The notes: generated by a model from the letters alone, not told the origin. Numbered from the stretch's first letter, positions 1 through 19,290 are shown. The stretch: 64,000 nt of DNA from an uncultured Clostridia bacterium (GCA_934122115.1 CAKOVU010000003.1:64442-128441); one strand, 5' to 3'. Numbers and translations: made by a program.

Positions 1-20
1 CTCATCAAGTAAAGAAAAAT

Positions 21-953
21 TTGGATTGCTATGATATAGATATAATTCCAGGGAGAATTTTTGAAGGCAATATGGTAAAACTATTTATATTTTGCCAGAA
101 TTACGATTTGATTCATTTTATATGGAGAGGATACATATCTTTGATTGATAGAGAAGAGATGTATTCATATATAGAGTCGCTTGGAATGACGACAGAAGAA
201 TTTAAAGAGAAATTTATATATAATAAAAAAATAAGTTTTTCTGTTTGTGATGAGTTATATTTAGAGGGCGAAGAAAAATGGAGAACAGATAAAATTTTAG
301 AATATACCGATAAATATTTCGTAACTTCTAAAAGATTATATGATATCTACAGCAAACTAGATAAAAAACCAATGATGATAATACATGACGGGGTTGATTT
401 AGATAACTATAAGCCACAAAATTTAGAAAGATTTGATAATGTAACTAATATCAATGTGGGATGGGTTGGAAATAGCAAGTTTAAAGGATCTGACAATGAT
501 TGTGACATGAAAGGTGTAGAAGGAGTAATAAAACCGGCTATAAAAGAATTGCAGGATGAAGGATACAAAATAGAGCTAAAATTAGCAGATAGAAATATTA
601 AAATGATAGAACAAAAGGATATGCCTGATTTTTATAACTCTTTAGAACTATACATTTGCGCATCAAAGGCAGAAGGTACACCACTTACAGTGTTGGAAGC
701 GATGGCGATGGGAATACCAGTAATATCAACTAATGTAGGAATTGTAGAAGAAGCATTTGGAAATTGCCAAAAGAAATATATTTTGCAAGAAAGAAGTAAA
801 GAGTGTTTAAAAGAAAAAATAAAATATTTGATTTCAAATAATTCAGAATTTAAAGAATTATCACAAGAAAATTTAGAAGGCATAAAAAAATGGGATTGGA
901 AAATAATTTCAGAGCAGTACAAAGAATTATTTGATAACATACTAAAAATGTAA
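21..953 (+). CDS. Glycosyltransferase family 1 (GT-B), C-terminal part. The reading frame is open to the window edge, so the gene is probably 5'-truncated by the window; a TTG at 21 is the first possible start.
   Basis: C-terminal GT1 signature E-x7-E region 'EGTPLTVLEAMAMGIPVISTNVGIVEE'. No in-frame stop between position 3 and 21. Confidence 0.65.
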   Translation: MDCYDIDIIPGRIFEGNMVKLFIFCQNYDLIHFIWRGYISLIDREEMYSYIESLGMTTEEFKEKFIYNKKISFSVCDELYLEGEEKWRTDKILEYTDKYFVTSKRLYDIYSKLDKKPMMIIHDGVDLDNYKPQNLERFDNVTNINVGWVGNSKFKGSDNDCDMKGVEGVIKPAIKELQDEGYKIELKLADRNIKMIEQKDMPDFYNSLELYICASKAEGTPLTVLEAMAMGIPVISTNVGIVEEAFGNCQKKYILQERSKECLKEKIKYLISNNSEFKELSQENLEGIKKWDWKIISEQYKELFDNILKM

Positions 954-963
954 GAGGAGAAAA

Positions 964-2256
964 ATGAAAGACGATAAATATTTTTGGGATTACCAGTTGC
1001 AACCAGGTATGAAATTAAATAATAATTACTATAAAAATCTAGATGTTGAACCATTAGTAACAATTATAACTTCATTTTATAATGCTCAAGAATTCATGTG
1101 GCAAACAATAAATTGTGTATTTAACCAAACTTTTCCATATTGGGAATGGATAATCGTAGATGATGGAAGTACACAAGAAGAAGCACTAGATTACCTAAAG
1201 CAAGTTGAAAAAATGGATAATAGAATCAAAGTTTATCATAAAGAAAATGAAGGATTGGCTAAGGGAAGAGACTATGCTATAAAATATTCAAATACAAAGT
1301 ATATCCTACCTCTAGATGCAGATGATTTGATTGAACCAACTTATATAGAAACTTTATATTGGACAATGGAAACTAATAAAGAAGCATCATGGGCGTTTAC
1401 TAACTCTGTAGGATTTGGAAAATATATTTATTTGGTTGATCATAAATTTAACAGTGAAAAAATGAAGGCAGAGAATCAAATAACTGCTACAGCCCTAATA
1501 AGAAAAGATAAGATACTGAATTTAGGCGGTTATGGAGTGGCAAAAAGGTATGTAAATGAAGATTGGCACTTATGGCTTAGAATGCTTGCAGAAGGCGATT
1601 ATCCTGTTCAAGTTACGTATTACGGATTTTGGTATAGAAGAAGAATGCAAAGTTTACTTACAGAAGTAAATGATACCAAGAAAAAAGAAAATGAATTGAG
1701 GCTGAGAGATCTTAAAACTGAAGCAGATAAGATAACTAAAAGAGTTGAGCCTGTGATATATTCTGAAGAAAAAACAGAGGATTTACTGCAGTACAATGAA
1801 TTGAATTTTGATAAAACCTTTCCGAAGGAAAACAAAGAAACAATATTGTATATATTGCCACAAATTGGCTGTGATGCAAAATTATATAAACAAATAAAAG
1901 AAAAAAACAATAAATTTAACATAATAGTAATAACATTAAAAAAAACAGAATATTCGGAATATGTGTATAGGCAAAAGTATGAAAAATTTGCAACAGTATT
2001 TAATTTAACAACTTTTTTACCATCTAAATATTATTTAGGATTTATAGAATATATAATAAAAACAAGAAATATAAATGAAATTTATATGGCAAAAAACAAA
2101 TATAGTCAAATAATACAAGGAAAATTTAAAATAATGGATAATATTACATATAGGAATAGCAAATTTGTATATATACTTAAAATATTAGAATATAAATTAA
2201 ACCATACTATTATAGCAAGGGCTATTAGGAAAGCGATAAGACTATTAAAAAGCTAA
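964..2256 (+). CDS. Glycosyltransferase family 2 (GT-A).
   Basis: N-terminal GT2 motif 'VTIITSFYNAQEF...IIVDDGSTQEE' and a 'LDADD' DxD motif. RBS GAGGAG 5 nt upstream. Confidence 0.7.
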   Translation: MKDDKYFWDYQLQPGMKLNNNYYKNLDVEPLVTIITSFYNAQEFMWQTINCVFNQTFPYWEWIIVDDGSTQEEALDYLKQVEKMDNRIKVYHKENEGLAKGRDYAIKYSNTKYILPLDADDLIEPTYIETLYWTMETNKEASWAFTNSVGFGKYIYLVDHKFNSEKMKAENQITATALIRKDKILNLGGYGVAKRYVNEDWHLWLRMLAEGDYPVQVTYYGFWYRRRMQSLLTEVNDTKKKENELRLRDLKTEADKITKRVEPVIYSEEKTEDLLQYNELNFDKTFPKENKETILYILPQIGCDAKLYKQIKEKNNKFNIIVITLKKTEYSEYVYRQKYEKFATVFNLTTFLPSKYYLGFIEYIIKTRNINEIYMAKNKYSQIIQGKFKIMDNITYRNSKFVYILKILEYKLNHTIIARAIRKAIRLLKS

Positions 2257-2278
2257 TATGAAAGGAACGATTGTGTAG

Positions 2279-4477
2279 ATGAAAATTTGGTTTTTAACAG
2301 GTGAATTTGCACCAGATTTTGGAGGCGGAATTGGAACATATGTAGAAAATTGCGCTAAAATGTTTGCTAAAGCTGGAGATGATGTAACAGTAATAGTAAG
2401 AAGCATTAATGGAAATAAATCAGAGAAAGCAAAAGAAGGTTACAGAATTGAAAGATTTCAACAAGGAGAAGGAGAAAACTATCAATACTTAGGATATGAT
2501 AATGCATTGGCTTATCAATACTATGAAGTGATAATGAAGATGATTGATAAATATGGAAAACCTGATATTATAGAAATGCAGGAATATAATGCGTATGGAC
2601 AATATATTATACAAAGTAAATTAATGTTGAATGAAAAACTGAAAGACATTCCATTAGTTGTACATCTTCATACTCCAAGCTTTGAAACTTTAAAAATTAA
2701 TCAATTTAATACGTATGAATTACCATTTTATTGGATTGGTGAGATGGAAAAATTTTGCATTAAAGGTGCAGATGCATTAGTATGCCCAAGTCAATTCTTA
2801 GCAGATAAATTACAATATCTAGTAGATGAAAAAATAAAAGTAATAAATTTACCTTTTGACATAGACAAAGAAGAATTAGAAAAATATGAAAAAGAGGGAA
2901 TTCAAAAACCTGATAAGAAAACTATATTATATTTTGGAAGAACAGAGTACAGAAAAGGCGTTGTGCAAATGCTAAAAGGTGCTGAAAAATTATGGAAAAA
3001 AGGATTAGATTTTAAGGTTAAAATTATTGGTGGAGATACAATATTAGAATCAAAAGGTACATATGTTGGAGAGGATTTAAAGAAGAAATATGCTAAATAT
3101 ATAGAAAGTGGCAACCTAGAAATGATGAATTCGATACCACATTTAGATTTGATTCCTCATATTTTATCAGCTACAGCGGTAACAATTCCATCACTATACG
3201 AGAATTTTCCTAATACATGTATATACTCAATGTGGCTAGGAAAGCCTGTATTAGTTTCAAAAAGCGGTGGACAGGCAGAAATGGTAAAAGATTCCGGAAA
3301 GAATGGATTGATTTTTGACTGGGATAAAGATGGAGATTTTGAAGAAAAACTAAAACAATTATTAAATATGTCTGATGAAGATTTAAAGCAAATGGGAGAC
3401 AATGCAAAATCAAGAATTCATGAATTATGCAACATGGAAGACAACTTGAAGATTAGAAGAGAATTCTTTGAAGATGTAATAAAAAATAAAAATAAACCTA
3501 AAGAGAAGTTTCCGTTTGTTGAAGAAATGCCTAAAGATGAATATATAAAGCAATATGATGGTGAGAAAGATTTATTATCAGTGGTAATTCCATATTATAA
3601 TTTAGGAAAAACATTACCAGAAACAATAGAAAGTATTAAAGCTACTACTTATAAGAATTATGAAATAATAATAGTAAATGATGGAAGCACTGATGAGGAA
3701 AGTGTAAAAGTATTAGAACAATATAAAGATGATGAAAAGGTAAGAGTAGTAAATATAGAGAATAAAGGATTAGCTAATGCAAGAAATGTAGGTGCAAAAG
3801 AAGCAAAGGGAGAGTTTGTAGCATTTCTAGATGCGGATGATAAAATTGATCCAACATTTTATGAGAAAGCAATAAGGATATTACACCAATATAGTAATGT
3901 TTCATATGTTTATAGCTGGGTTCAATATTTTGAAGGAAGCACGGCGGTATGGCCAACTTTCAATGTTCATATACCATATTTATTATGTGCGAATATGCTC
4001 GCAGCTTTTGTAGTAATAAGAAAGAATGATTTTCTAAATTTTGGACAAAATAGAATAAAAATGGAATATGGAATGGAAGATTATGATGGCTGGGTAAGCT
4101 TAGCAGAACACGGATATTTGGGAGTATCTATTCCAGAAAAACTTAATTTATATAGAATAAGAAAAGATTCAATGTCAAGGCAATTTAATAAAAAAATGAG
4201 AGTGTACTTATACCAGATATCTAAAGAGGGACATGAAAAATTATTTGCAAAATATTCAAAAGACATATATATGCTATTACTTACAAATGGACAGTCTTAT
4301 TATTGGAATAATCCTACTACACCGGTATACATTCCTACAACTGGGGAAGTTCAACAACCAGATGAAAGAATATTAAAAATAGAAAGAATGCTTAATTCTT
4401 TACCAGGTAGAGCAGCAAGAAAAGTTTATAGAGGATTAAAGAAAATAAAGCATGGAGTACAGAATATTTTTAAATAA
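2279..4477 (+). CDS. Bifunctional glycosyltransferase: N-terminal GT4/GT1-like domain fused to a C-terminal GT2 domain.
   Basis: N-terminus 'MKIWFLTGEFAPDFGGGIGTYVEN' (GT4-like). C-terminal half 'LSVVIPYYNLGKTLPETIESIKATTYKNYEIIIVNDGSTDEE ... AFLDADD' (GT2). Confidence 0.7.
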   Translation: MKIWFLTGEFAPDFGGGIGTYVENCAKMFAKAGDDVTVIVRSINGNKSEKAKEGYRIERFQQGEGENYQYLGYDNALAYQYYEVIMKMIDKYGKPDIIEMQEYNAYGQYIIQSKLMLNEKLKDIPLVVHLHTPSFETLKINQFNTYELPFYWIGEMEKFCIKGADALVCPSQFLADKLQYLVDEKIKVINLPFDIDKEELEKYEKEGIQKPDKKTILYFGRTEYRKGVVQMLKGAEKLWKKGLDFKVKIIGGDTILESKGTYVGEDLKKKYAKYIESGNLEMMNSIPHLDLIPHILSATAVTIPSLYENFPNTCIYSMWLGKPVLVSKSGGQAEMVKDSGKNGLIFDWDKDGDFEEKLKQLLNMSDEDLKQMGDNAKSRIHELCNMEDNLKIRREFFEDVIKNKNKPKEKFPFVEEMPKDEYIKQYDGEKDLLSVVIPYYNLGKTLPETIESIKATTYKNYEIIIVNDGSTDEESVKVLEQYKDDEKVRVVNIENKGLANARNVGAKEAKGEFVAFLDADDKIDPTFYEKAIRILHQYSNVSYVYSWVQYFEGSTAVWPTFNVHIPYLLCANMLAAFVVIRKNDFLNFGQNRIKMEYGMEDYDGWVSLAEHGYLGVSIPEKLNLYRIRKDSMSRQFNKKMRVYLYQISKEGHEKLFAKYSKDIYMLLLTNGQSYYWNNPTTPVYIPTTGEVQQPDERILKIERMLNSLPGRAARKVYRGLKKIKHGVQNIFK

Positions 4478-4498
4478 GAATATGGAAAGGAAAGAACA

Positions 4499-5815
4499 AT
4501 GGAAAAAGATATAAAAGAAAAAATTATTAACATTTTTAAGCAACCGTTAATATATGTTTTATTGTTTTGCATATTTGTTCAAGTAAAAATTTATAATACA
4601 GTTCCAAATTATGTTATGACTTCTGATAGCTATACATATGCAGAGAAATATAATACAAGTATTTTACGAGGTCAAGTTAATGAATTAAGAACGCCTGTGT
4701 ATCCATATTTTATTAAAGCGATTGGAAAGATTTCAGGACAAGAAAATTTATACAATAGTGTGGCAATGGCACAAAAAATACTATTTATAATTACTCTAAT
4801 ATTATTTTATTTTTGCTTGAAAAAAATAACGAAAAGTAATATAATCACATCGGTATTAACAATAGTATTTGGAATTTGTCCATTTATAGTATTGTGGAAT
4901 ATAATGATTTTAACAGAAGCAATTTCAATATTTGAAAGCATATTGCTAAGTTTTGTAACAATATTATACTTGGAAAAACCTAAAAAAAGTACTGCAATAA
5001 TATTGGGTATTATAGTATTAGGTATGATTTTAACAAGACCATCATTTATTTATTTATTACCAATATATTTCTTATTCTGGATATTAAGATTAATATTTAA
5101 TAAAAAGGAAAAAGAAGTAATTTCAGGTCTTATAAGTCTTACTATTTGCTCAGTTGTATTATTAGGGTATTGTGGACTAATGAAGGCTCAGCATGGAGAA
5201 TTTTCAATAACTGCAGTTTCGTATATAAATAATACAATAACTGCAATAAACAGTAATTCATATAAACAATCTGGCAATGAAGATATGATTAAGATTGTGG
5301 ATGAAATAAAGGGTGATAGAAGCGATGGTGAAATCTGCTGGACTGCACTGAATAAATTAAAAGAGCAGTATTCTGTTGAAGAAATAAAGAATTTTGCTAA
5401 TACTTCACTTAAAAATGATAAAAATTATTTGAATTTTATAATATCAAAAACAATACAATTAGGCTCATCAAATATAGGTACAGCATCATATATACCAAAT
5501 GATGTGTTTATAAATGAAAAATATGCTAATCAGATATATACAGAAATAGGAAATATAATTTTTCCAATTAACTTTGCGATGGTATATATAATGGTAGGAA
5601 TAGCTGTAATTTATATTTTATATGATTTAATAAAAAATAAAAATATAAATTGGTATTTAGCATTTTTTACGGTATTGATTGCTGCTAATATATTTACATT
5701 AATAGTAGGGGCACCTTTTGAATCTCAAAGGCTTTTTGCTTCGTCAATTGTACAAGTTTTACTATTGATTGGATATGTTGTGGCTAAAGGAATATACAAT
5801 AAAAAAATAAATTAA
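4499..5815 (+). CDS. Polytopic membrane protein (about 10 predicted TM segments). Possibly a GT-C-fold glycosyltransferase of the ArnT/PMT type (GT39/83-like).
   Basis: Many hydrophobic segments. First extracytoplasmic loop contains a 'DSYTYAEKY' acidic/aromatic motif reminiscent of GT-C enzymes. Position inside a glycosyltransferase locus. Confidence 0.4.
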   Translation: MEKDIKEKIINIFKQPLIYVLLFCIFVQVKIYNTVPNYVMTSDSYTYAEKYNTSILRGQVNELRTPVYPYFIKAIGKISGQENLYNSVAMAQKILFIITLILFYFCLKKITKSNIITSVLTIVFGICPFIVLWNIMILTEAISIFESILLSFVTILYLEKPKKSTAIILGIIVLGMILTRPSFIYLLPIYFLFWILRLIFNKKEKEVISGLISLTICSVVLLGYCGLMKAQHGEFSITAVSYINNTITAINSNSYKQSGNEDMIKIVDEIKGDRSDGEICWTALNKLKEQYSVEEIKNFANTSLKNDKNYLNFIISKTIQLGSSNIGTASYIPNDVFINEKYANQIYTEIGNIIFPINFAMVYIMVGIAVIYILYDLIKNKNINWYLAFFTVLIAANIFTLIVGAPFESQRLFASSIVQVLLLIGYVVAKGIYNKKIN

Positions 5816-5829
5816 GAAAGGATAAAAAG

Positions 5830-7410
5830 ATGGAAAAGAAAAACGTAGTTATTATTGGTGCTGGTCCTGCGGGATTAACAATGGCTCATGAGTTACTAAA
5901 AGAAAATGGAAATGAGCAATATAATGTAACAGTGCTAGAAGAAACACAAGAAATTGGAGGAATTTCTAAAACAGTAAAATATAATGGAAACCGTATGGAT
6001 ATAGGAGGACATAGATTTTTCTCGAAAGATGAAAGAGTAATGAACTTCTGGCATGATTTAATGCCTGTACAAGGAAAAAACTCATTTGATGATGAAAAAC
6101 TAGGAAGAGTAAAACCTCTTGAAGAAGGTGGCCCAGACCCTGAAAAAGAAGACGATGTAATGCTTATAAGACAAAGGGTTTCTAGAATTTATTATTTAAA
6201 GAAATTCTTTGATTATCCAATTAGCATGAAAATGCAAACTTTCAAAAATATGGGCTTTGACCGCACAATGAAGGCTGGTTTTAGTTATTTAAAATCATTG
6301 ATATTTAAAAGAGAAGAAAAATCATTAGAGGATTTTTACATCAACAGATTTGGTAAAGTACTTTATAGCATGTTCTTTGAAAAATATACTGAAAAACTTT
6401 GGGGAAGACATCCAAGCGAAATATCTGCTGATTGGGGAGCTCAACGTGTAAAGGGAATATCTATTAAAGCAGTAATAAAAGATATGTTCCATAAAGCATT
6501 CGGAAAGAAAAATAGCGAGAATACTGAGACTTCTTTGATAGAACAATTTTGGTATCCAAAATATGGTCCAGGACATTTATGGGAGACTCTAGCAAATAAA
6601 GTTTCAAATGAAGGAGCTTCAATATTAAAAGGATATACTGTTAAAAAATTAAATTTCAAAGATGGAAGAATAGTTTCTGCTGAATGCGAAACACCTGAAG
6701 GAATTAAAACAATAGAGGGAGATATATTTGTTTCTTCTATGCCAATGAATGATTTAGTAGCAGGATTTACAGGAATAGATGTACCAACGGAAATAAGAGA
6801 TATAGCTAAAGGATTACCTTTCAGAGATTTCATAACAGTTGGATTATTAGTAGACAAACTAAACCTAGAAAACAAAACTGATATTAAAACTTTAGGAAAT
6901 ATAGTTCCAGATTGCTGGATTTATGTTCAAGAGCCAGAAGTTAAAATGTGTAGAATTCAAATATTCAATAACTGGTCACCATACTTGGTAAAAGATGCAG
7001 AAAACAAAGTATGGATTGGATTGGAATATACATGTAGTGAAGGTGATGAATACTGGAATATGTCTGATGAAGAATTTATAAACTTTGCAATAGATGAATT
7101 AGTTTCAATGAAAATAATTAGCAAAGATCAAGTTGAAGATTCTCATCGTGAAAGAATTAAGAAAGCATATCCTGCATATTTCGACACATACAAAGATATT
7201 GATAAATTAATAGACTACGTAAATAACATAGATAATTTATACTGTATAGGAAGAAACGGTCAACATAGATATAACAACATGGACCACTCTATGGTAACGG
7301 CTATAGAAGCAGCTAAGAATATACGTAATGGAATAGCAGACAAATCAAATATTTGGAATGTAAATACAGATAAAGAATATCATGAAGTAAAAAAAGCGGA
7401 ACAAAATTAA
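5830..7410 (+). CDS. FAD/NAD(P)-binding oxidoreductase (amine-oxidase or UDP-galactopyranose-mutase-like fold).
   Basis: N-terminal dinucleotide-binding motif 'VVIIGAGPAGLTMAHEL'. 526 aa. Embedded in a polysaccharide locus. Confidence 0.6.
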   Translation: MEKKNVVIIGAGPAGLTMAHELLKENGNEQYNVTVLEETQEIGGISKTVKYNGNRMDIGGHRFFSKDERVMNFWHDLMPVQGKNSFDDEKLGRVKPLEEGGPDPEKEDDVMLIRQRVSRIYYLKKFFDYPISMKMQTFKNMGFDRTMKAGFSYLKSLIFKREEKSLEDFYINRFGKVLYSMFFEKYTEKLWGRHPSEISADWGAQRVKGISIKAVIKDMFHKAFGKKNSENTETSLIEQFWYPKYGPGHLWETLANKVSNEGASILKGYTVKKLNFKDGRIVSAECETPEGIKTIEGDIFVSSMPMNDLVAGFTGIDVPTEIRDIAKGLPFRDFITVGLLVDKLNLENKTDIKTLGNIVPDCWIYVQEPEVKMCRIQIFNNWSPYLVKDAENKVWIGLEYTCSEGDEYWNMSDEEFINFAIDELVSMKIISKDQVEDSHRERIKKAYPAYFDTYKDIDKLIDYVNNIDNLYCIGRNGQHRYNNMDHSMVTAIEAAKNIRNGIADKSNIWNVNTDKEYHEVKKAEQN

Positions 7411-7420
7411 TTGAAAAAAT

Positions 7421-7457
7421 ATCTACCTAGAAAATATTTTTAGGTAGATATTTTTTT
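7421..7457 (+). terminator. Rho-independent terminator after the FAD oxidoreductase gene.
   Basis: Inverted repeat ATCTACCTA...TAGGTAGAT followed by a T7 run. Confidence 0.7.
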
Positions 7458-7561
7458 GCAAAATTAGTAAAAAATAGCAACAAAAAAATGACAAAATATG
7501 TTCCTTTTTTACAAGTTTCATGATACAATAAAGCGAGAATAAGACAAAAGGAGAGATACAT

Positions 7562-10393
7562 ATGAGAAGATATATAAAAGTAGTAGCAATAATGTTAATA
7601 TTACTATCTATGGCAGGGGCTACTAGCAATGCAAATGATAAAACAAGCAATATAAGTTTAGAAAAAGTAGTGGCAGAAAATAAAATAGTAGAAGATGGAA
7701 CCTATGTAATAAAATCTGCAATAAACAACAATTATGTATTGGATGTAGTTGGAGCCTCAAAAGTAAGTGGTGGCAATGTTCAACTATATAAAAATGCCTC
7801 GGCGGACCAACAACGTTTTATAGTAAAATACTTAGATAATGGGTACTATACTATTACAGCTAAGCATTCAAGCAAAGTTTTAGACGTGGCAAATGGAGGA
7901 AAAACAGCAGGTACAAATGTATGGCAATGTACACCAAATAATTCAGATGCACAAAAATGGTTGTTGAAAGATGCAGGAAATGGATATGTTTATCTAGTAT
8001 CAAAGTGCAATGGATTGTACCTTGATGTAGCAAATGGAGTAGCAGCAAATGGCACAAACGTACAAGTTTGCTATGGAAATAATTCAAATGCACAGAAATT
8101 TAAATTTGAAAAGGTACAAAGCAGTAATAATCCTACAAATAATACTCCGACAGGAACAAAAACAATAGAAGATGGAACATATGTAATAAAATCAGGAATA
8201 AATAATGGATATGTATTAGATGTGTTAAATGGTTCAAATGTAAGTGGAGCTAATGTTCAATTATATAAAAATTCATCTGTGAATCAACAACGTTTTGTAG
8301 TAAAATATTTAGATAATGGGTATTATACTATTACGGCTAAACACTCAAACAAGGTGCTAGATGTAGCAAATGGAGGAAAAACAGCAGGTACAAATGTATG
8401 GCAATGTACGCCAAACAATTCTGATGCGCAGAAATGGGTAATCAAGGATGCAGGAAATGGATATTACTATATAATATCAAAATGTAATGGATTGTATCTT
8501 GATGCTGCAAATGGAGTGGCAGCAAATGGTACAAATATACAAGTTTGCTATGGAAACAATTCAAATGCTCAAAAGTTTAAGTTTGAAAAATATTCAGAAT
8601 TTGTAGGAACAAAAACAATAGAAGATGGTACATATCAGATAGAGTCCGGAATTAATAGTGGATATGTACTAGATGTAGTAGGTGGTTCAAATGTAAGTGG
8701 AGCTAATGTTCAATTGTATTCAAAAAAATCTGTTACAAGACAACGTTTTACAGTTAAATATTTAGGAGATGGATTTTACACAATAACAGCTGCTCATTCT
8801 TCTAAAGTATTAGATGTAGCAAATGGAGGGAAAACAGCAGGTACAAATGTATGGCAATGTACACCAAATAATTCAGATGCGCAAAAATGGATAATAAAAG
8901 ATGCAGGAAATGGATATTATTATTTAATATCAAAATGTAATGGACTATATCTTGATGCGGCAAATGGAGTAGCAGCAAACGGTACAAACATTCAAGTTTG
9001 CTATGGAAATAATTCAAATGCTCAAAAATTTAAATTCGTAAAACCAATAAATATGCTAGAAAGTTTAGATGAAAGCAAATATCCAGGATACAAAGAAAGA
9101 ATATCTGCACTTATGAATGCACATCCAAATTGGAACTTTGAGTTTTTATATACAGGAATAAAATTCAGCGATGCAGTGGCTGGAGAATATCAAGTAAGAA
9201 AAAGAAATCTTGTTCCAACAGAGTATGGTGGAGAATGGATTTCTGGTACAACATTATATGATACAGGATGGTATGGAGCATCTGAAAAGGCTATAGCATA
9301 TTATATGGATCCGCGTAATTTCTTAAATGATACAGATGTATTCCAATTCCAAGATGTTAATGAATACTTAGAAGGAGCTTGCACATTAGAAGGCTTAAAA
9401 TCAAAGGTTGCTAATTCATTTTTAGCAGATTATGCAACAGATATTAATACAGCTTGCCTAAACCAAAATGTAAATCCATATTACATAATAGCTAGATTAT
9501 TCCAGGAGAATGGAACAAACCCTAAGAGTGGAACACATAAAATGGATGCAGGAAATGGTAAGTATTACTATAATCCATTTAATATAGGAGCTACAGGAGA
9601 TTCTTTAACAGAAGTGTATAACAATGCACTAGCTACAGCTAAGAGAAATGGTTGGGACACTATGGTAAAAGCTCTTGAAGGCGGAATTAAGATATGTAAA
9701 GAAAACTGGTTAGACAATTATCAAAATACACTTTATCAGAATAGATTTGATATAGATTCAACAAATGGAACTTCATTATATACTCACCAATACATGCAAA
9801 ATCTAATGGGTGCATATAGTGAAGCCAAAATACTAAGAAGCTCATATGCTAATACAGGAAAATTGGAATCTAATTTTACATTCCAAATACCTTTATATGA
9901 GGGAATGGATAAGGAACTTTCACCTATTCCTAAAAATAATCAAGAAAGTTATGCAATGAATGTAAAAACAACAGGCACGTCAATCCGTATAAGAGAAGAT
10001 GCTTCAACTGATTCAAAGATATTGAGAGAACTACCAAATGCTGGAACAGTGCTATTATCAGTAAAAAGAGGAATTAATTCTAACTGGCAACAAGTTATCA
10101 CATCAGATGGACTTATTGGATATGTATCTGGAACATATCTAGAACAAATTGATGATGTGAAAACATGCAACTATAAGGCAAAAGTAAAAACCAACGATGG
10201 AAATGGATGTAATGTAAGAATTGGACCAAGTACTAGATTAGATAAAGTAACAGCACTTTCAGATGGCGTTGAAGTAACGGTTATAGATAACTCTACTTAT
10301 AAAAATATAGATGGATATGATTGGAGCAGAGTAGTACTTTCTAGTGGAACACAGGTATTTATACCAAGCAGATACTTAGCAAAAATAAACTAA
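7562..10393 (+). CDS. Secreted cell-wall hydrolase. Signal peptide, three ricin-B-like beta-trefoil lectin modules, a glucosaminidase (GH73-like) catalytic region, then two C-terminal SH3b domains.
   Basis: Signal peptide 'MRRYIKVVAIMLILLSMAGATSNA'. Three ~150-aa repeats with QxW-like 'AQKW/AQKF/QQRF' sub-repeats. Central region 'YYIIARLFQENG...'. Two SH3_3-like segments at the C-terminus. Confidence 0.65.
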   Translation: MRRYIKVVAIMLILLSMAGATSNANDKTSNISLEKVVAENKIVEDGTYVIKSAINNNYVLDVVGASKVSGGNVQLYKNASADQQRFIVKYLDNGYYTITAKHSSKVLDVANGGKTAGTNVWQCTPNNSDAQKWLLKDAGNGYVYLVSKCNGLYLDVANGVAANGTNVQVCYGNNSNAQKFKFEKVQSSNNPTNNTPTGTKTIEDGTYVIKSGINNGYVLDVLNGSNVSGANVQLYKNSSVNQQRFVVKYLDNGYYTITAKHSNKVLDVANGGKTAGTNVWQCTPNNSDAQKWVIKDAGNGYYYIISKCNGLYLDAANGVAANGTNIQVCYGNNSNAQKFKFEKYSEFVGTKTIEDGTYQIESGINSGYVLDVVGGSNVSGANVQLYSKKSVTRQRFTVKYLGDGFYTITAAHSSKVLDVANGGKTAGTNVWQCTPNNSDAQKWIIKDAGNGYYYLISKCNGLYLDAANGVAANGTNIQVCYGNNSNAQKFKFVKPINMLESLDESKYPGYKERISALMNAHPNWNFEFLYTGIKFSDAVAGEYQVRKRNLVPTEYGGEWISGTTLYDTGWYGASEKAIAYYMDPRNFLNDTDVFQFQDVNEYLEGACTLEGLKSKVANSFLADYATDINTACLNQNVNPYYIIARLFQENGTNPKSGTHKMDAGNGKYYYNPFNIGATGDSLTEVYNNALATAKRNGWDTMVKALEGGIKICKENWLDNYQNTLYQNRFDIDSTNGTSLYTHQYMQNLMGAYSEAKILRSSYANTGKLESNFTFQIPLYEGMDKELSPIPKNNQESYAMNVKTTGTSIRIREDASTDSKILRELPNAGTVLLSVKRGINSNWQQVITSDGLIGYVSGTYLEQIDDVKTCNYKAKVKTNDGNGCNVRIGPSTRLDKVTALSDGVEVTVIDNSTYKNIDGYDWSRVVLSSGTQVFIPSRYLAKIN
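7680..9045 (+). repeat. Three tandem, nearly identical ~455 to 475 nt direct repeats inside the hydrolase gene. Each encodes one lectin module.
   Basis: Long identical stretches (GTAGCAAATGGAGGAAAAACAGCAGGTACAAATGTATGGCAATGTAC...) recur three times, starting near 7692, 8166 and 8618. Confidence 0.85.
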
Positions 10394-10415
10394 TCATATT
10401 TTAAGAGAGGTAAAA

Positions 10416-11291
10416 ATGAAAAAGATAAATATAAATAAAATGTTTATAATATCAATAATATGTGCAATGATATTACTTGTATTTTCAAGTAATACCATTG
10501 CAACAAGCATGGTAGAATTTGATGATGAAATGGCAGATGAACAAGCTAACGAAGAATTAAGGCAACAAGAACAAGAAGACCAAGAAAATGCTGGAAAATC
10601 TAGTAATAACTTTTTATCAGAATTATCTGTAGAAGGATATAAAATAAGCCCTGCTTTTGATAAGCAAACAATAAATTATAGTATAGATGGAGAAATAACA
10701 GCAAAGAAAGTTAATATACAAGCCAAAACAGATGATGACAGAGCAACAGTTACTGGAATAGGCGAAGTAGAATTACAAACAGGTGAAAATAATTTTAGGA
10801 TAAGTGTAAAAGCAGAAAATGGAACTGAAAGGGCATATTTTATTAAAATTATAAAGAAAATAGATGATGAAGAATTAAAACTTTCATCTTTAAAAATTAA
10901 GGCTGTTGATAAAAATGGAGAAAAGCAAGATGTAGATTTAAATATAGATTTTTCTTCAGATGTTTTTGCGTATAGTTGTGAAGTTTCTTACACTATTACA
11001 AAAATAGAAGTGGAAGCAGTAGCAAATAAAACAAATTCTAAAATAACAATTGAAGATAATCCTGAAGAATTAAAGGAAGGCCAAAATACAATAAAAATAA
11101 AACTAACAGATGATAATGAAAATGAAACTATTTATAAAGTACAAGTAAATAAACAATACAGCTTAATGGCTAATGGAGCAATTGATAATGAAACAGGCAG
11201 CAAGAACATAGTAATTGGAATTATAGCTATAGTACTTTTGATAATGGTTATATTACTATTTACAAAGAAAAGTAAGAAGAGAAAACATTAA
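10416..11291 (+). CDS. Surface protein with a signal peptide, an acidic linker, two cadherin-like beta-sandwich domains and a C-terminal transmembrane anchor.
   Basis: N-terminal hydrophobic signal. Two segments matching the cadherin-like pattern (L..L.V.G..L.P.F......Y...V). C-terminal 'IVIGIIAIVLLIMVILLFTKKSKKRKH'. Confidence 0.5.
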   Translation: MKKININKMFIISIICAMILLVFSSNTIATSMVEFDDEMADEQANEELRQQEQEDQENAGKSSNNFLSELSVEGYKISPAFDKQTINYSIDGEITAKKVNIQAKTDDDRATVTGIGEVELQTGENNFRISVKAENGTERAYFIKIIKKIDDEELKLSSLKIKAVDKNGEKQDVDLNIDFSSDVFAYSCEVSYTITKIEVEAVANKTNSKITIEDNPEELKEGQNTIKIKLTDDNENETIYKVQVNKQYSLMANGAIDNETGSKNIVIGIIAIVLLIMVILLFTKKSKKRKH

Positions 11292-11313
11292 AATTTAAAG
11301 TGAGGAATAATGT

Positions 11314-12420
11314 ATGTGGGGAGATATCGCTATTGCATTCTTATTAGCATTTATAACAGCATTTGTAATAACACCGTATACAATAAGATTAGCTAGAAAA
11401 GTAGGCGCTGTAGACGTACCTAGCGACAGAAGAGTAAATAAAAAGCCAATGCCAAGACTTGGAGGACTAGCAGTTATATCAGGCTTTTTAGTATCCATGA
11501 TATATTTAATTATATCTATGGCAATAGAAGGAAAAATTAATTTTCTAGGAGATAATTTATATATAAAATTGATAGGCGTATTGCTAGGAATGATTATTCT
11601 TGGAATCACATGTTATATAGATGATGTGAAAGGAATAAAACCATTAACCAAGTTAGCAGGACAAACCCTAGCTGCTATTGTTGTTGTTCAGAGTGGGGTT
11701 CTTATAGATAATTTTACAATACCTTTTAAAGAAAATAGTATTGTGTTAAATGAAGTATTTAGCTATATCATAACTATAGGATGGATAGTTGGAATTACAA
11801 ATGCGATAAATTTAATAGATGGACTTGATGGATTATCTTCAGGGATTACATTAATTTCGTGTATATCTCTATTAATAATTTTTGCATTAAATGAATCTCC
11901 TCTAATAGCTATAGTGTTAATTACAGCATTAGCAGGTTCGATAGTTGGATTTTTGCCATATAATTTCAATCCAGCAAAAACATTTATTGGAGATGTAGGT
12001 TCCAATTTTATGGGATTTGCACTTTCAATAATATCAATATTAGGTGTGGCTAAAACTTATACAGCTATAGTTTTAATAGCTCCTATAATAGTACTTGCTT
12101 TGCCTATATTTGACACTCTATGGGCAATAATTAGAAGAATAGTAAAAACAAAATCTATAAAAGGTGTATTTAAAGCAGATAAAGGTCATTTACATCATAG
12201 ACTTATGGCAAAAGGTTTTTCACAAAAACAATCGGTGCTAATTCTATATGGAATAACTGCGATACTAGGAATGACAGCAGTAATACTTTTGGATAGTGGA
12301 ATCTGGAAAGCAATATCATTTGCTTTACTTGTAGTTGCAATTATAGCAATAGGATATAAAGATATAAAACAACTAGGATTGTTTAATGATGAAGAAAACA
12401 ATCATGGCAAAGGAGAATAA
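11314..12420 (+). CDS. tagO: Undecaprenyl-phosphate sugar-1-phosphate transferase of the WecA/TagO/MraY (GT4) family. Candidate initiating enzyme of the glycopolymer pathway.
   Basis: Conserved 'NAINLIDGLDGL' motif, 10 to 11 TM segments, 368 aa. Confidence 0.8.
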   Translation: MWGDIAIAFLLAFITAFVITPYTIRLARKVGAVDVPSDRRVNKKPMPRLGGLAVISGFLVSMIYLIISMAIEGKINFLGDNLYIKLIGVLLGMIILGITCYIDDVKGIKPLTKLAGQTLAAIVVVQSGVLIDNFTIPFKENSIVLNEVFSYIITIGWIVGITNAINLIDGLDGLSSGITLISCISLLIIFALNESPLIAIVLITALAGSIVGFLPYNFNPAKTFIGDVGSNFMGFALSIISILGVAKTYTAIVLIAPIIVLALPIFDTLWAIIRRIVKTKSIKGVFKADKGHLHHRLMAKGFSQKQSVLILYGITAILGMTAVILLDSGIWKAISFALLVVAIIAIGYKDIKQLGLFNDEENNHGKGE

Positions 12421-12421
12421 T

Positions 12422-13366
12422 ATGAAGAAAATTACAATATTAGTACCTGCATATAATGAGGAAGAATCTTTACCTTTTTTATATGAACGAGTTTCTAAAA
12501 TTATGAATGAAATGGAAAACTATGAATTTGAGCTTCTTTTTGTTAATGATGGAAGCAAAGATAATACATTAAAAGAAATAAAAGAATTAAGAAGTAAAGA
12601 TAATAGAGTTAGCTATGTGGATTTTTCTAGAAATTTTGGAAAAGAAATAGGAATGATTGCAGGTTTAGACTATGCAACAGGCGATTGTGTAATAATAATG
12701 GATGCAGATTTACAAGATCCGCCAGAGTTAATTCCAGAAATGATAGCTCTATGGGAAGAAGGATACGATGATGTATATGCCCAAAGAAAATCTAGAAAAG
12801 GTGAAACTTGGTTAAAGAAATTTACATCTAAAATGTATTATAAAGTATTGCAAAGCTTAACAAAAGTACCAATCCAAAAAGATACAGGAGATTTTAGATT
12901 ATTAGATAGAAGATGCGTGAATGCATTAAAGAAGATGAGAGAAACAAGCAGATGTTCAAAGAGCATGTTTAGCTGGATTGGGTATAATAAAAAAGCTATT
13001 TATTATGATAGAGACCCACGAATAGCAGGAAAAACAAAATGGAATTATAAAAAATTAATAGATTTAGCAATAGATGGAATAACAGCTTTTACAACATCTC
13101 CACTTAGAATTTCTACATATCTTAGCATACCAACTTTTTTAGCTTTAGTAGTATATTTTATATATGTTATAATTAAATGCATAAGATTAAATGTTGCTAT
13201 TCAGGCATTCCAAGCTATTATATTATTAATATTATTCTTCTCAGGAGTACAAATAATATTGATAGGAATTATGGGAGAGTATTTAGGAAGAATATTCAAT
13301 GAATCTAAAAATAGGCCATTATATTTGGTAAACGAGTATAATGATAAAAGGGAAAATAATGATTAG
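12422..13366 (+). CDS. GT2 undecaprenyl-phosphate glycosyltransferase of the GtrB/CsbB/ArnC type (Und-P-sugar synthase).
   Basis: 'ITILVPAYNEEESLP', a 'DADLQDPPE' DxD motif and two C-terminal TM helices. The ATG at 12422 with AAGGAG 10 nt upstream is preferred over the ORF-track start at 12386. Confidence 0.75.
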   Translation: MKKITILVPAYNEEESLPFLYERVSKIMNEMENYEFELLFVNDGSKDNTLKEIKELRSKDNRVSYVDFSRNFGKEIGMIAGLDYATGDCVIIMDADLQDPPELIPEMIALWEEGYDDVYAQRKSRKGETWLKKFTSKMYYKVLQSLTKVPIQKDTGDFRLLDRRCVNALKKMRETSRCSKSMFSWIGYNKKAIYYDRDPRIAGKTKWNYKKLIDLAIDGITAFTTSPLRISTYLSIPTFLALVVYFIYVIIKCIRLNVAIQAFQAIILLILFFSGVQIILIGIMGEYLGRIFNESKNRPLYLVNEYNDKRENND

Positions 13367-13385
13367 AAAGGGTTATTTATAATAT

Positions 13386-14396
13386 ATGAGAGAACAAAAT
13401 ATTATTAATCCTGAAGTAGAAGATGGTATAGAAGAAAAGCTTGAAATAAGCTTAAGACCTCAGTTTTTAAGAGAATACATAGGACAGAATAAAGTTAAAG
13501 AGAATATGAAAGTGTATATAGAGGCTGCAAAGAAAAGAAAGGAGCCTCTAGATCACGTTTTATTATATGGACCACCAGGATTGGGAAAAACAACTTTAGC
13601 TAATATAATTGCAAATGAAATGCATTCAAACATAAAAGTTACATCTGGTCCAGCAATAACGAAGCCTGGAGATATGGCAGCATTACTTACAGGATTATCA
13701 GAGAATGATATTTTATTTATAGATGAGATACATAGAATAAATAGAAATATCGAAGAGATATTATATCCAGCATTGGAAGATTACAAGCTAGATATAATAA
13801 TAGGAAAAGGTCCAACAGCAAAGTCAATTAGAATAAATCTTCCTAAATTTACAATAGTTGGGGCTACTACAAAAGCTGGTTCTCTTACCACACCATTAAG
13901 AGATAGGTTTGGAATAGTGGAAAGACTAGAATTATACAGCTTGGAAGACTTAAAAACAATAATTAAAAGAACGGCTGGAATTTTGAATGTTGGAATAGAT
14001 GAAGAATCAATAGAAGAAATTGCAAGAAGGTCAAGAGGAACCCCTAGAATTGCTAATAGACTTGTAAAAAGAATTAGAGATTATGCTACTGTTGTAGGAG
14101 ATGGAAAAATAGATATTTCTATTGCAAAACTCGGATTAGACAAGCTTGAAATAGATAGCCTTGGACTGGACAAAATAGATAGAAAAATACTAGATGTAAT
14201 GATTAATAAATATGGAGGAAAACCAATCGGAATAGAAACATTAGCAACCACTGTAGGTGAAGATATTGATACGATTGAGGATGTTTATGAACCTTATTTG
14301 ATTCAAATAGGATTTATAGCAAGGACTCCAAGAGGCAGAGTACCATTACCAGATGCATATGACCATATTGGGGCAGAGCATCAAATTAGAATTTAG
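13386..14396 (+). CDS. ruvB: Holliday junction branch-migration ATPase RuvB.
   Basis: Walker A '[18 protein letters not shown]', RuvB-type sensor motifs, 336 aa. Confidence 0.9.
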
Positions 14397-14419
14397 ATAG
14401 TTAACAAAAGGGGAAAAGT

Positions 14420-16513
14420 ATGAAAATTAATTGGAATAAGAAAATTGTTATAGGATTATTAATAATATTATTGGTTTCTATATTTTTGGAAGGTGTTGTT
14501 TTTAATATTAATTCATTTAGACTTTTAGGTGGCGATTATCCATATAAAAAGATAGAAATATCTGATGATATTCTAGAAGGTTTAGAAAACTTAGGTGACA
14601 ATAGGTATAAAGTAACAAAGAATAATCCAATGATTCGAATAAAAGACGTAAACATTCAAACAGGCACTATAAAGCTAGATATATCAAGAGAGCATAAAAA
14701 CAATCAAATCGGAAAAAGAAAGACAGATATAACTATATATTATTCAGATGCAACTTCGAAATACCTTAGAAAAACACCAACAAAAACTATTAATGAACAA
14801 ATTGCTAGAAGCCAATTTGGAATATTGCATCTTTCTGGAAAAACTAATTCAATTGTGATACAAATAAAAGCAGAAAAAGATGAGATTATAAACTTAAAAG
14901 ATATAGAGTTTAATGTTAGTGTACCTTACAAATTCAATTTTGCAAGATTTTCAATGGTATTCTTAATAATAACAGCACTATATTTATTTTTTAATTTAAA
15001 AATATTTGATGAAGAATATGATGCAAGAAATAAATATCATTCAACAGTAGTCATCATTGTTCTATTGACTTATATAATCACAATGGTAAGTACAACTATC
15101 TTGGAAAGTGATAACAAGAATATAGTAACGGATCTTGATACAACAAGAACAATAGTGTATGAAAAGTATTACACAGATTCATTAATTAATGGCAGTTTAA
15201 GCTTACAAGTTGAAAAAGATGCTAGGCTTGACGAAATGGATAATGTATATGATGAAACTGCTAGAAGCATGGAAAATATAAATTATTTATATGATTATGC
15301 TTACTATGATGGGAATTATTATGTGTATTTTTCAATATTACCACAATTGCTAGTTAATATACCATTTAGACTTATAACTGGGCAGTACATAAATGTAGCA
15401 TATGAAGTTTTGTTATTTGCATTACTAGGCACAGTATTCACGTTGCTAGCAATTGAAAAGCTTATAAAGAAATTCTTTAAAAATGTTAATTTAAGAATAA
15501 TGACACTTTCAATGATAACAGCTTTGTTTTCAAGTGTTCTATTATATTTAACAGGAAGAACTTTGGTTTATGAAGTTGTTGCTTCATGTGGATATTGGCT
15601 AATAATGCAAGCAGTATATTTCTTAGCTTGTGCATTTGATAAAGAAAAAATAAACTATAAATGTTTAACCATAGGATGCATATCTGCTGCTTTAGCGGTA
15701 AATGCAAGACCAAATTTATTAATAGTTTCATTGCTATTCTTGCCGATATTTATAGAAAAGTTTGTAGAATTTATAAAGAAATTAAAGAATGATAATTCAA
15801 AAACAACTAAAAAAGAATTTGTTAAATATATATTGGCAATAGTTCTACCTTATGGAATTATAGGAATTAGTATGATGATACTAAATTACGTTAGATTTGG
15901 TAGTATAACAGAATTTGGTGCTGCATATCAATTAACGTCAAACGATATGATAAATTTAGGTTATAGATATTCTACTATTCCAATAGGAATATGGCATTAC
16001 CTATTTAATCCACCTGTAATAAATCTTACTTTTCCGTTTATTCATATGCAACCAGTAACTCCACTTTATTTAGGCTTTTATGGATGCGGATATGTAGGGG
16101 TAGGAACATTTTGGGCAACACCAATAACGTTATTGCTAATATTTATTCCGATCTTAAGAAAGCATATAAAGAATACAAATGTAAAATTATGGAGATTAAT
16201 AAGAAATTCATTAATTGTAGCATTAATAATGATAATTGTGATAACCTTATTAGCGGCAAGCTATGAAAGATATTCTTTAGATTATACTTGGATGGTAGTA
16301 TGGCCTGCAATTGCTATGATGCTACTAATATATGATTTAATTAAAGAAAATGAATTAGTTAGAAAAATGTTTGAAATAGTATGCACGATAGCTACAATTA
16401 TATGTATTTGTGTAGCAATGGCTATGGCCATAAAATCTGAATCAAGCTATGCTGAATATTTTTCGTCAGAGCAATATGATAATATATCTCAAAGTATGAT
16501 GTTTTGGGAATAA
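14420..16513 (+). CDS. Large polytopic membrane protein (697 aa). A putative GT-C-type glycosyltransferase partnering the GtrB-like enzyme.
   Basis: N-terminal TM segment, then a ~170-aa soluble segment, then more than 10 TM segments. No motif I can assign confidently. The call comes from gene context only. Confidence 0.3.
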   Translation: MKINWNKKIVIGLLIILLVSIFLEGVVFNINSFRLLGGDYPYKKIEISDDILEGLENLGDNRYKVTKNNPMIRIKDVNIQTGTIKLDISREHKNNQIGKRKTDITIYYSDATSKYLRKTPTKTINEQIARSQFGILHLSGKTNSIVIQIKAEKDEIINLKDIEFNVSVPYKFNFARFSMVFLIITALYLFFNLKIFDEEYDARNKYHSTVVIIVLLTYIITMVSTTILESDNKNIVTDLDTTRTIVYEKYYTDSLINGSLSLQVEKDARLDEMDNVYDETARSMENINYLYDYAYYDGNYYVYFSILPQLLVNIPFRLITGQYINVAYEVLLFALLGTVFTLLAIEKLIKKFFKNVNLRIMTLSMITALFSSVLLYLTGRTLVYEVVASCGYWLIMQAVYFLACAFDKEKINYKCLTIGCISAALAVNARPNLLIVSLLFLPIFIEKFVEFIKKLKNDNSKTTKKEFVKYILAIVLPYGIIGISMMILNYVRFGSITEFGAAYQLTSNDMINLGYRYSTIPIGIWHYLFNPPVINLTFPFIHMQPVTPLYLGFYGCGYVGVGTFWATPITLLLIFIPILRKHIKNTNVKLWRLIRNSLIVALIMIIVITLLAASYERYSLDYTWMVVWPAIAMMLLIYDLIKENELVRKMFEIVCTIATIICICVAMAMAIKSESSYAEYFSSEQYDNISQSMMFWE

Positions 16514-16528
16514 AGGAGAATATACTAA

Positions 16529-17569: not shown

Positions 17570-17597
17570 ACAATATAAATGTTTAAAATATAAGCTT

Positions 17598-18623: not shown

Positions 18624-18640
18624 AAATATCTAGAATCATA

Positions 18641-18669
18641 TTGACAAAAGTAATACGCTGTAATACAAT
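18641..18669 (+). promoter_or_regulatory. Sigma-A-type promoter (TTGACA, 17 nt spacer, TACAAT) for the relBE operon, with direct repeats GTAATAC x2 in the spacer as a candidate autoregulatory operator.
   Basis: TTGACA at 18641-18646, TACAAT at 18664-18669. The spacer reads AAAGTAATACGCTGTAA. Confidence 0.6.
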
Positions 18670-18692
18670 AAAAAAGAAGGGAGTTGATATTT

Positions 18693-18911
18693 ATGACTAT
18701 TTCAGTAAGATTAAATGAAAAAGATACAGAATTGATAAAAGCTTATGCGAAAATAAATAATATATCATTATCGGATTTAATAAGAACTGCAGTATTAGAA
18801 AAAATAGAAGATGAGTATGATTTAGAATGCTATAATAAAGCAATAAGAGAATTTAAAGAAAATCCTAAAACTTATACTTTAGAAGAAATAAAGGAGGATT
18901 TAGGACTATAA
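18693..18911 (+). CDS. relB: RelB/DinJ-family antitoxin (ribbon-helix-helix).
   Basis: 72-aa protein 'MTISVRLNEKDTELIKAYAKINNISLSDLIRTAVLEKIEDEYD...'. Its stop overlaps the toxin start (ATGA). RBS GGGAG 9 nt upstream of the ATG at 18693. Confidence 0.6.
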   Translation: MTISVRLNEKDTELIKAYAKINNISLSDLIRTAVLEKIEDEYDLECYNKAIREFKENPKTYTLEEIKEDLGL

Positions 18912-19177: not shown

Positions 19178-19290
19178 ATATTTTGAATCATAATAAATAT
19201 TGAAATTAATTATCAATTAAGATATAATTGTGACATAAAATATGGAGTATTAAATTAAAGATTTTGAAAGGCAGTGCATAGGTAAAAAAT

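Follow-up and report, generated by a model that had tools for sequence, protein, structure and literature searches.

A 64,000-nt stretch of DNA from an uncultured Clostridia bacterium (GCA_934122115.1, CAKOVU010000003.1:64442-128441; hereafter the window) begins inside a gene cluster for a surface glycopolymer, a locus in which a first-pass annotation had recognised no polymer exporter. Using the 430-aa family 2 glycosyltransferase (GT2) encoded near the window start as an exact query against public assemblies, we found a scaffold (ENA ERZ28615101, scaffold_196; L002) that is 100% identical to window positions 1-12256, places window base 1 at its own base 9038, and supplies ~9 kb of upstream sequence, bringing the total examined to 73 kb. 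An ATPase and permease pair of the ATP-binding cassette (ABC) type lies 0.3-1.9 kb upstream of the window and ends 318 nt before its first base. From the TagH/Wzt-like ATPase and the Wzm-like permease we predict that the locus is a conventional ABC-transporter-dependent glycopolymer cluster, whose apparent lack of an exporter arose because the window starts mid-cluster. The first-pass annotation had itself named a canonical exporter just upstream as the observation that would make the pathway conventional, and that is where the pair was found; its proposal that an uncharacterised membrane protein acts as the exporter is contradicted by the same genes. We consider it probable that the exported polymer is decorated outside the cell by a Gtr-type system, the added sugar most likely being a furanose. 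The upstream genes that carry this prediction are the following.

L002 7178-7918: ABC ATPase (ABC_tran), 246 aa; best matched by TagH models (238 and 212 bits), galactan Wzt 196 bits
L002 7947-8720: ABC-2 permease (ABC2_membrane), 257 aa; best model Wzm, E 2e-22
L002, upstream of the ABC pair: O-antigen-ligase-like membrane protein, 485 aa; PF13425, E 1.6e-43

The upstream genes occur in the order rpiA, GT4, GT2, GT2, the 485-aa PF13425 protein, GT4, GT2, ATPase, permease, a 71-aa open reading frame (ORF) and GT4, tightly packed and on one strand throughout, and contribute five glycosyltransferase (GT) genes in addition to the three inside the window. The GT4 gene cut by the window edge is intact on L002 (337 aa, 8977-9990) and starts 61 nt before the window. 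The whole cluster is ~25 kb long, occupies a single strand, and starts ~8.4 kb before window base 1, and not at base 1. The ABC ATPase and permease pair also occurs in two relatives, the sister species (L010) and the more distant L011. Wzx, MurJ, TagGH and GtrA are all lacking from the 64-kb window, and the earlier statement that no exporter is recognisable thus stands for the window and falls for the locus. No Wzx or MurJ was found in the 73 kb either; the PF13425 protein that is present could be a ligase, an O-oligosaccharyltransferase (O-OTase) or a polymerase. LCP ligases (LytR_cpsA_psr) had no match among the ORFs of the window and the 9 kb upstream, a search that did not extend to the whole genome, and one may lie elsewhere. 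LCP genes are often unlinked.

The 71-aa ORF between the permease and GT4 genes belongs to a conserved set of soluble coiled-coil ORFs of 71-80 aa with the C-terminal motif LDSILYSRSYKF...KKIIKK, which always stand directly before a GT gene (L002 8752-8967, i.e. 70-285 nt before window base 1; L010 5208-5423; L011 3564-3806; L012 17096-17311 and 8589-8810). Basic amphipathic tails similar to its own also end the 430-aa and 732-aa GTs of the window. The element could serve in chain-length control or membrane association; the 71-aa ORF was also considered as a replacement flippase and rejected, the product being a soluble coiled coil and not a GacJ-like membrane protein.

Inside the window, where G+C is ~29% and nearly every gene is on the + strand, all ORFs of positions 1-16600 were scanned with Pfam and NCBIfam, with the following result.

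1-953 (ORF read from 21), + strand: 3' part of a GT4 gene (Glycos_transf_1, Pfam), cut by the window edge
964-2256, + strand: GT2, 430 aa; PF00535, E 5.8e-26; long C-terminal extension with a basic amphipathic tail at its end
2279-4477, + strand: GT4 and GT2 fusion, 732 aa; Glyco_transf_4/Glycos_transf_1 at residues 16-378, Glycos_transf_2 at 434-561
4499-5815, + strand: polytopic PMT_2 protein, 438 aa; 33.9 bits against a cut-off of 26.1
5830-7410, + strand: flavoenzyme like UDP-galactopyranose mutase (UGM-like), 526 aa; NCBIfam PRK07208, 804 bits; FAD/NAD-binding
7562-10393, + strand: secreted ricin-lectin protein, 943 aa; three ricin-type beta-trefoils, a SagB-like/GH73-like glucosaminidase region and two SH3_3 domains
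10416-11291, + strand: cadherin-like beta-sandwich protein; PF12733, E 1.2e-17; signal/anchor sequence and C-terminal transmembrane (TM) helix
11314-12420, + strand: WecA/TagO-type polyprenyl-phosphate N-acetylhexosamine-1-phosphate transferase; PF00953, E 1.7e-39; 11 hydrophobic segments
12386-13366, + strand: GtrB/PgfS/ArnC-like GT2; PgfS E 4e-97 (325 bits) and ArnC E 4e-53 (180 bits), both full length
13386-14396, + strand: ruvB, Holliday-junction helicase; RuvB_N E 4.9e-81, AAA_lid_4, RuvB_C
14420-16513, + strand: polytopic protein, 697 aa; no Pfam or NCBIfam match
16529-17569: QueH-GNAT fusion, 346 aa; QueH with a C-terminal GNAT acetyltransferase domain

The GT4-GT2 fusion, the FAD oxidoreductase, the TagO-like initiator and the GtrB-like synthase of the first-pass annotation are all present by Pfam/NCBIfam. 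Its five cytoplasmic GT genes reduce to three soluble Leloir GT genes (four catalytic domains) in 1-16513, and this segment is not an unbroken glycan locus, being interrupted by ruvB. The lectin-bearing hydrolase and the cadherin-like anchored protein exist as reported, inside the cluster and not beside it. The 732-aa GT4-GT2 protein is a plausible candidate for the chain polymerase. With 123 bits against TIGR02380 (WecA), under the equivalog cut-off of 326, the 11314-12420 product is a member of the family whose orthology to WecA is unproven. The 12386-13366 product, in whose sequence two C-terminal hydrophobic helices are visible, is a membrane-anchored GT2 and a predicted polyprenyl-phosphate sugar synthase of the GtrB/CsbB/ArnC type. 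Promoter and terminator scans of 1-19900 gave hits at chance level, and operons are not definable from them.

The two large polytopic proteins are GT-C glycosyltransferases, not transporters, as the first-pass annotation had guessed: both have the GT-C fold and a conserved Asp in an outer loop, and a transporter fold was not seen in either. In the 438-aa protein, which matches PMT_2, D43 in the first outer loop is invariant. The 697-aa protein carries a beta-sandwich ectodomain resembling a carbohydrate-binding module (CBM) at about residues 40-165, between TM1 and TM2, and D278, R282 and D292, in the outer loop after this ectodomain, are invariant. The acidic residue in the first extracytoplasmic loop of a GT-C-fold transferase, by which Gtr-type systems are recognised, is thus present, and the CBM-like ectodomain suggests a carbohydrate acceptor for the 697-aa enzyme. 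Neither this protein nor ten representatives of its family match any Pfam or NCBIfam model, YfhO, PMT, PMT_2 and the other Pfam GT-C families included, and the family profile has no match among PDB sequences, so that its likeness to known GT-C families is at the level of fold only. A word-index search returning 22 homologues had made the family appear rare; this was rejected when an exhaustive profile search gave 6,907 representatives. The nearest relative of the window protein is from 'uncultured Clostridium sp. UMGS1650' (94% amino-acid identity), which places the organism of the window beside it as an uncultured human-gut Clostridium. Some members reach 1,064-1,450 aa through N-terminal extensions of 390-785 aa (P0192, P0236, P0193); the Pfam scan of the ten representatives, these long forms among them, revealed no informative fusion partner, and the N-terminal extension of the member at locus L053 is weakly GtrA-like (E 6e-7).

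The closest solved relatives of the 526-aa flavoenzyme are all UGMs, aligned over nearly the full length (E 5.5e-16), among them the long eukaryotic enzymes of Trypanosoma cruzi (4dsg) and Aspergillus fumigatus (AfUGM; 3uka/3ute). Alignments to 4dsg and 3uka show that the AfUGM positions GGH, F66, F158, Y162, W167, R182, R327, Y419, R447, Y453 and N457 are kept in the flavoenzyme, while the position of N163 is occupied by Thr; the aligned GGH, Arg and Tyr residues are presumably those that bind flavin, diphosphate and sugar in AfUGM. The protein has no match to Pfam GLF (PF03275) at E<=0.001, and the match to TIGR00031 is confined to its 74 N-terminal residues and reaches 39 bits, the cut-off being 304; we therefore call it UGM-like, not UGM, with a putative role in the interconversion of UDP-galactopyranose and UDP-galactofuranose (UDP-Galp/UDP-Galf). 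The PRK07208 family to which it belongs is very abundant and has no named function ('hypothetical protein'), its homologues being labelled 'NAD(P)/FAD-dependent oxidoreductase' or 'protoporphyrinogen oxidase', and in the literature searched nothing relevant was found on PRK07208, on a lipid-linked Galf donor or on a UGM tied to a GT-C enzyme. A DprE1-like role is less likely than that of a mutase, since all solved relatives are UGMs and the active site is conserved.

To place these genes in context, a profile of the 697-aa family was run with one genome per species, giving 534 relatives, of which 80 loci were kept. A UGM-like gene lies on the same strand in 34 of the 80 loci and is directly adjacent (gap <400 nt) in 25. 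In five more loci (L017-L020, L047) the gap of 457-542 nt has the size of a GtrA gene, and GtrA was detected in four of them (L017-L020), so that the UGM-like gene is found beside the 697-family GT-C gene, directly or across a GtrA-sized gap, in 30 of 80. Homologues of the 438-aa GT-C occur in two forms, one of ~440 aa and one of ~600 aa that ends in a GtrA domain (PF04138). The sister species (L010, 70% identity) has the fused form, with the UGM-like gene immediately after it, and in L011, L012, L094 and L096 a separate GtrA gene of 148-154 aa stands between the GT-C and UGM-like genes. Sampling from the side of the mutase gave a polytopic GT-C-type neighbour in three of three cases (DUF2142; PMT_2 with GtrA; a 674-aa protein), the last of which has no Pfam match and is flanked by RuvB and QueH. 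Since the neighbourhoods of the 697-aa and 438-aa families and the mutase-side sampling agree, the UGM-like enzyme, GtrA and a GT-C enzyme are robustly associated with one another. The UGM-like protein is 70-75% identical between species, their GT-C partners only ~30%.

The ruvB gene is next to the UGM-like/GT-C pair in 24 of the 80 species loci. It is part of the array by inherited synteny (RuvB, UGM-like, GT-C, QueH) and is not a glycan gene. A GtrB-like GT2 gene lies directly 3' of the GT-C gene in eight of the 80 loci, all of them without a UGM-like gene; the genes of L014 (64% identity) run WecA, GtrB-like, RuvB, UGM-like and 697-family GT-C. The ruvB gene has no adjacent ruvA, and the array of RuvB, in some cases the UGM-like enzyme, GT-C and QueH is kept across many Clostridia (window 13386-17569; L006, L008, L097). 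The UGM-like gene of the window is outside this array, 6 kb upstream and beside the other, 438-aa GT-C gene. QueH of the relatives is a stand-alone protein of 182-196 aa, the GNAT fusion being seen in the window; an extra 439-aa polytopic protein with no Pfam match, encoded between GT-C and QueH in the sister species (L006 10100-11419), is absent from the window.

Two further features recur around the module. After the UGM-like gene, L094 (11131-12081) and L096 (7707-8657) carry a gene for phosphoribosyl pyrophosphate (PRPP) synthetase together with GT2 genes. PRPP is the donor for polyprenyl-phosphoribose in known pentofuranose systems, and the sugar could therefore be a pentofuranose in some lineages. 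Cell-wall enzymes with ricin-type lectin domains, bearing SH3 or peptidase M14 domains, recur beside the GT-C/GtrA/UGM-like module in L010, L094 and L096, which suggests that lectin and glycan form a wall-anchoring pair. The three ricin-lectin modules of the window protein (7682-9043) are recent internal DNA repeats, with ~82% nucleotide identity over ~900 nt.

The window itself harbors no GtrA gene, as the first-pass annotation had said: a tblastn search with three GtrA sequences against the window and the 9 kb upstream returned nothing, and no small polytopic ORF of the window has a GtrA match in Pfam. A 125-aa ORF with four TM helices (50306-50683, - strand) was considered as a replacement flippase and rejected, as it matches PF04020 (holin superfamily IV/YvlD-like) and not GtrA. 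Comparison with the sister species locates the loss. Window positions 5700-5790 align with L010 11220-11310, where the GT-C domain of the sister gene ends, and positions 5791-5835 align at 82% identity with L010 11769-11813, a segment that takes in the last GtrA-domain codons, the spacer and the beginning of the mutase gene. Compared with the sister species, the window lacks ~458 nt (~153 codons, corresponding to the GtrA domain) between two AAAGG sites, and the following scar is left.

5786-5829, + strand: deletion scar; AAAGG junction, followed by a remnant of the 3' GtrA-coding sequence and the old intergenic spacer

Conspecific scaffolds (97% nucleotide identity) carry the same deletion, and GtrA occupies this position in all outgroups; the deletion therefore took place in the lineage of the window. 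The missing GtrA is thus no novelty of the pathway but the lineage-specific loss of a domain that relatives retain. That the 438-aa GT-C gene is decaying after this loss was rejected, its dN/dS of ~0.14 (neighbours 0.02-0.05) indicating purifying selection, and the enzyme is therefore probably still used. Flipping must take place in trans, through a protein whose gene lies beyond the 73 kb examined. A single unlinked GtrA-type flippase is known to serve several GT-A/GT-C pairs, as with CflA in Lactococcus lactis and GtcA in Listeria (PMC8035078).

Taken together, these observations argue for a pathway of ABC export followed by Gtr-type decoration, each step of which is drawn from family assignments. 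The WecA/TagO-like enzyme (11314-12420) would prime undecaprenyl phosphate (Und-P), on which about eight Leloir GTs (five upstream and three in the window, the GT4-GT2 protein included) would build the chain in the cytoplasm. The Wzm/Wzt (TagG/TagH-like) transporter would export the polymer linked to undecaprenyl pyrophosphate (Und-PP), and the O-antigen-ligase-like protein upstream, or an LCP enzyme encoded elsewhere, would attach it. The GtrB/PgfS-like synthase would make an Und-P-sugar, to be transferred outside the membrane by the 438-aa and 697-aa GT-Cs. Given that the flavoenzyme is UGM-like and genetically tied to GT-Cs, we infer that the transferred sugar is most likely a furanose such as Galf, the side-chain furanose being supplied through the UGM-like enzyme.

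Several points weigh against this pathway. Neither the 64-kb window nor the upstream 9 kb yielded an LCP ligase, Wzx or GtrA, and the flavoenzyme lacks the GLF match noted above. Either GT-C could act on a protein or a teichoic acid as acceptor and not on the polymer of the locus. The ruvB gene stands between the GtrB-like gene and the 697-aa GT-C gene, whose co-location could reflect inherited synteny and not functional linkage. In other species, most RuvB/UGM-like/GT-C loci lack a GtrB-like gene within 10 kb; the route from mutase product to lipid-linked donor is therefore unproven, and the furanose step is the weakest.

In an alternative that we regard as unlikely but worth serious consideration, the GtrB/PgfS-like synthase and one or both GT-Cs would work apart from the locus polymer, as a system for the O-glycosylation of extracytoplasmic proteins or lipoteichoic acid. 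Models for such a system exist in GtrB/PgtC2 and the Pgf system of streptococci and in CsbB/YfhO of Bacillus. PgfS is the top NCBIfam match of 12386-13366, genes of the 697-aa family have housekeeping neighbours (RuvB, QueH, NusA) in many species and lie there outside a glycan locus, and a streptococcal GtrB with the GT-C enzyme PgtC2 glycosylates Ser/Thr-rich regions of membrane proteins (PMC12041528). However, the 438-aa GT-C gene lies with polymer GT genes on either side in the window and in L010, L011 and L012, and for the 697-aa protein the CBM-like ectodomain points to a carbohydrate as acceptor.

With the ABC-exported, Gtr-decorated polymer still preferred, its destination may also be questioned. 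It is rather improbable that the locus serves O-glycosylation of a surface protein of the surface-layer (S-layer) type, with the O-antigen-ligase-like protein acting as an O-OTase that transfers the Und-PP-glycan to protein and not to peptidoglycan. The PF13425 gene does lie in the same operon-like array as wzm/wzt, no LCP gene was found in the 73 kb examined, and slg clusters join Wzm/Wzt with an O-OTase of the Wzy_C type, WsaB of Geobacillus stearothermophilus being a proposed O-OTase (PMC2943079). Yet polymerases and ligases also fall under PF13425, the window has no recognisable gene for an S-layer protein, and the frequent lack of linkage of LCP genes applies here as well; the protein acceptor would in any case alter only the final acceptor and leave the export route as it is. 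Finally, the first-pass proposal that there is no canonical exporter and that the 438-aa or 697-aa protein exports the polymer, which had in its favor that none is encoded in window positions 1-64000, is very improbable given the Wzm/Wzt pair on an identical scaffold and the GT-C fold, with its conserved outer-loop Asp, of both proteins.

Beyond the glycan cluster the 64-kb window is occupied by housekeeping genes (PolA, a GalE-like epimerase, ValRS, PBP1a, FtsH, GerABC, SpoIVA, Pta/Ack and others). Nucleotide sugars may be supplied from two of these regions, 27130-29030 and 47678-50278, which between them encode the GalE-like epimerase and an aldose 1-epimerase, a 441-aa eukaryote-type pyrophosphorylase of the UDPGP family and a 419-aa NTP-transferase/hexapeptide protein. 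A ParE-family toxin gene (18911-19177, 88 aa) just 3' of a spore photoproduct lyase gene presumably encodes half of a type II toxin-antitoxin pair. At 34078-34476, a DprA match (DNA_processg_A) covering the first ~136 of 212 profile positions in a 132-aa ORF may mark a truncated dprA, and two tandem full-length paralogues of the acetate/butyrate kinase family (54923-57328; 397 and 396 aa) follow a phosphotransacetylase/butyryltransferase gene.

More broadly, and only tentatively, we propose that the UGM-like enzyme, GtrA and a GT-C enzyme (of the 438-aa PMT_2 type, the 697-aa unmodelled type or DUF2142) constitute a widespread, undescribed module of Clostridia that adds a hexofuranose such as Galf outside the cell from a polyprenyl-phosphate-furanose, possibly with the mutase acting on the lipid-linked sugar, that the 697-aa protein represents a new GT-C family with a built-in CBM, and that the glycan anchors ricin-lectin hydrolases. 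If true, the module would be the hexofuranose counterpart of the three-component pentofuranose systems and of the mycobacterial decaprenyl-phosphate-arabinose (DPA) pathway, and the tie of the UGM-like enzyme to GT-Cs and GtrA would point to a possible undescribed lipid-linked furanose donor. To our knowledge, Galf is absent from humans and immunogenic. The UGM-like/GtrA/GT-C module, the unmodelled GT-C family with a CBM-like ectodomain and the GtrA-domain deletion were not found in the literature searched. A GT-C family of thousands of members with no Pfam or NCBIfam model amounts to an uncatalogued enzyme family, and a clean GtrA-domain deletion beside a GT-C gene under purifying selection offers a natural experiment on the dispensability of GtrA or its replacement in trans. 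The findings are of relevance to gut-microbe glycobiology, where the recurrent ricin-lectin hydrolases are a possible wall-anchoring pair with the glycan, and showing that a seemingly exporter-less locus is ordinary saves effort on a false lead.

The locus can be compared with known systems at several levels. With the long eukaryotic UGMs of A. fumigatus and T. cruzi the flavoenzyme shares the N-terminal FAD Rossmann motif, near-full-length alignment and the GGH/Arg/Tyr residues, and differs in an E value of only ~1e-16, the lack of a Pfam GLF match and its PRK07208 membership. With the slg clusters of G. stearothermophilus and Paenibacillus alvei the locus shares Wzm/Wzt, an O-antigen-ligase-type protein and GTs in one tight Firmicute cluster, whereas its initiator is of the WecA and not the WbaP type, its ligase-like protein belongs to PF13425 and not to Wzy_C, and neither rml genes nor an S-layer gene were seen.

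The mycobacterial arabinan pathway (decaprenyl-phosphate-arabinofuranose; DprE1/DprE2; Rv3789; AftA-D/Emb) resembles the locus in its GT-Cs, in a polyprenyl-phosphate furanose donor (here only proposed), and in a flavoenzyme and a GtrA-like protein encoded beside a GT-C. The flavoenzyme of the locus is however UGM-like, with an amine-oxidase/GR2 fold, and not DprE1-like, the lipid-sugar synthase is a GtrB-type GT2, and there is no UbiA-type phosphoribosyltransferase or DprE2. In common with Gtr systems (GtrA/GtrB/Gtr*; CsbB/GtcA/YfhO; CsdA-F/CflA), the locus has a GtrB-like GT2 with two C-terminal TM helices and a GT-C with an Asp in the first outer loop, and its relatives have a PF04138 GtrA beside or fused to the GT-C; in contrast, the lineage of the window has lost GtrA, and linkage to a UGM-like flavoenzyme is a feature of no described Gtr system.

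The closest parallels are found in two decorated polymers. The group A carbohydrate (GAC; Streptococcus pyogenes gacA-L) depends on GacO, rhamnosyltransferases, the ABC transporter GacDE and LCP ligases, with GacI/J/K/L acting afterwards (PMC8035078). For the Citrobacter youngae O1/O2 antigens the set comprises WecA, a polymerase GT of several modules and Wzm/Wzt, after which a three-component pentofuranose system acts whose GT-C bears a CBM (Kelly et al. 2024, PMC11127046). Multi-module GTs typically serve as the polymerase in ABC-dependent pathways (PMC11127046). The locus differs from these two in its short Wzt (246 aa) without a C-terminal CBM, in having two GT-Cs, an O-antigen-ligase-like gene and a ruvB gene inside the array, in a UGM-like flavoenzyme in place of a PRPP-based donor synthase, and in lacking a flippase gene, which is the Wzx-type GacK in GAC and a MATE protein in C. 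youngae. Common to all three are an initiator of the WecA/TagO type, several Leloir GTs with a multi-module GT among them, a Wzm/Wzt-type pair and, within the cluster, a lipid-phosphate-sugar synthase and one or more GT-C enzymes for extracytoplasmic decoration. As this gene set matches those of ABC-dependent pathways with side chains added after export, we infer that the same logic governs the Clostridia locus.

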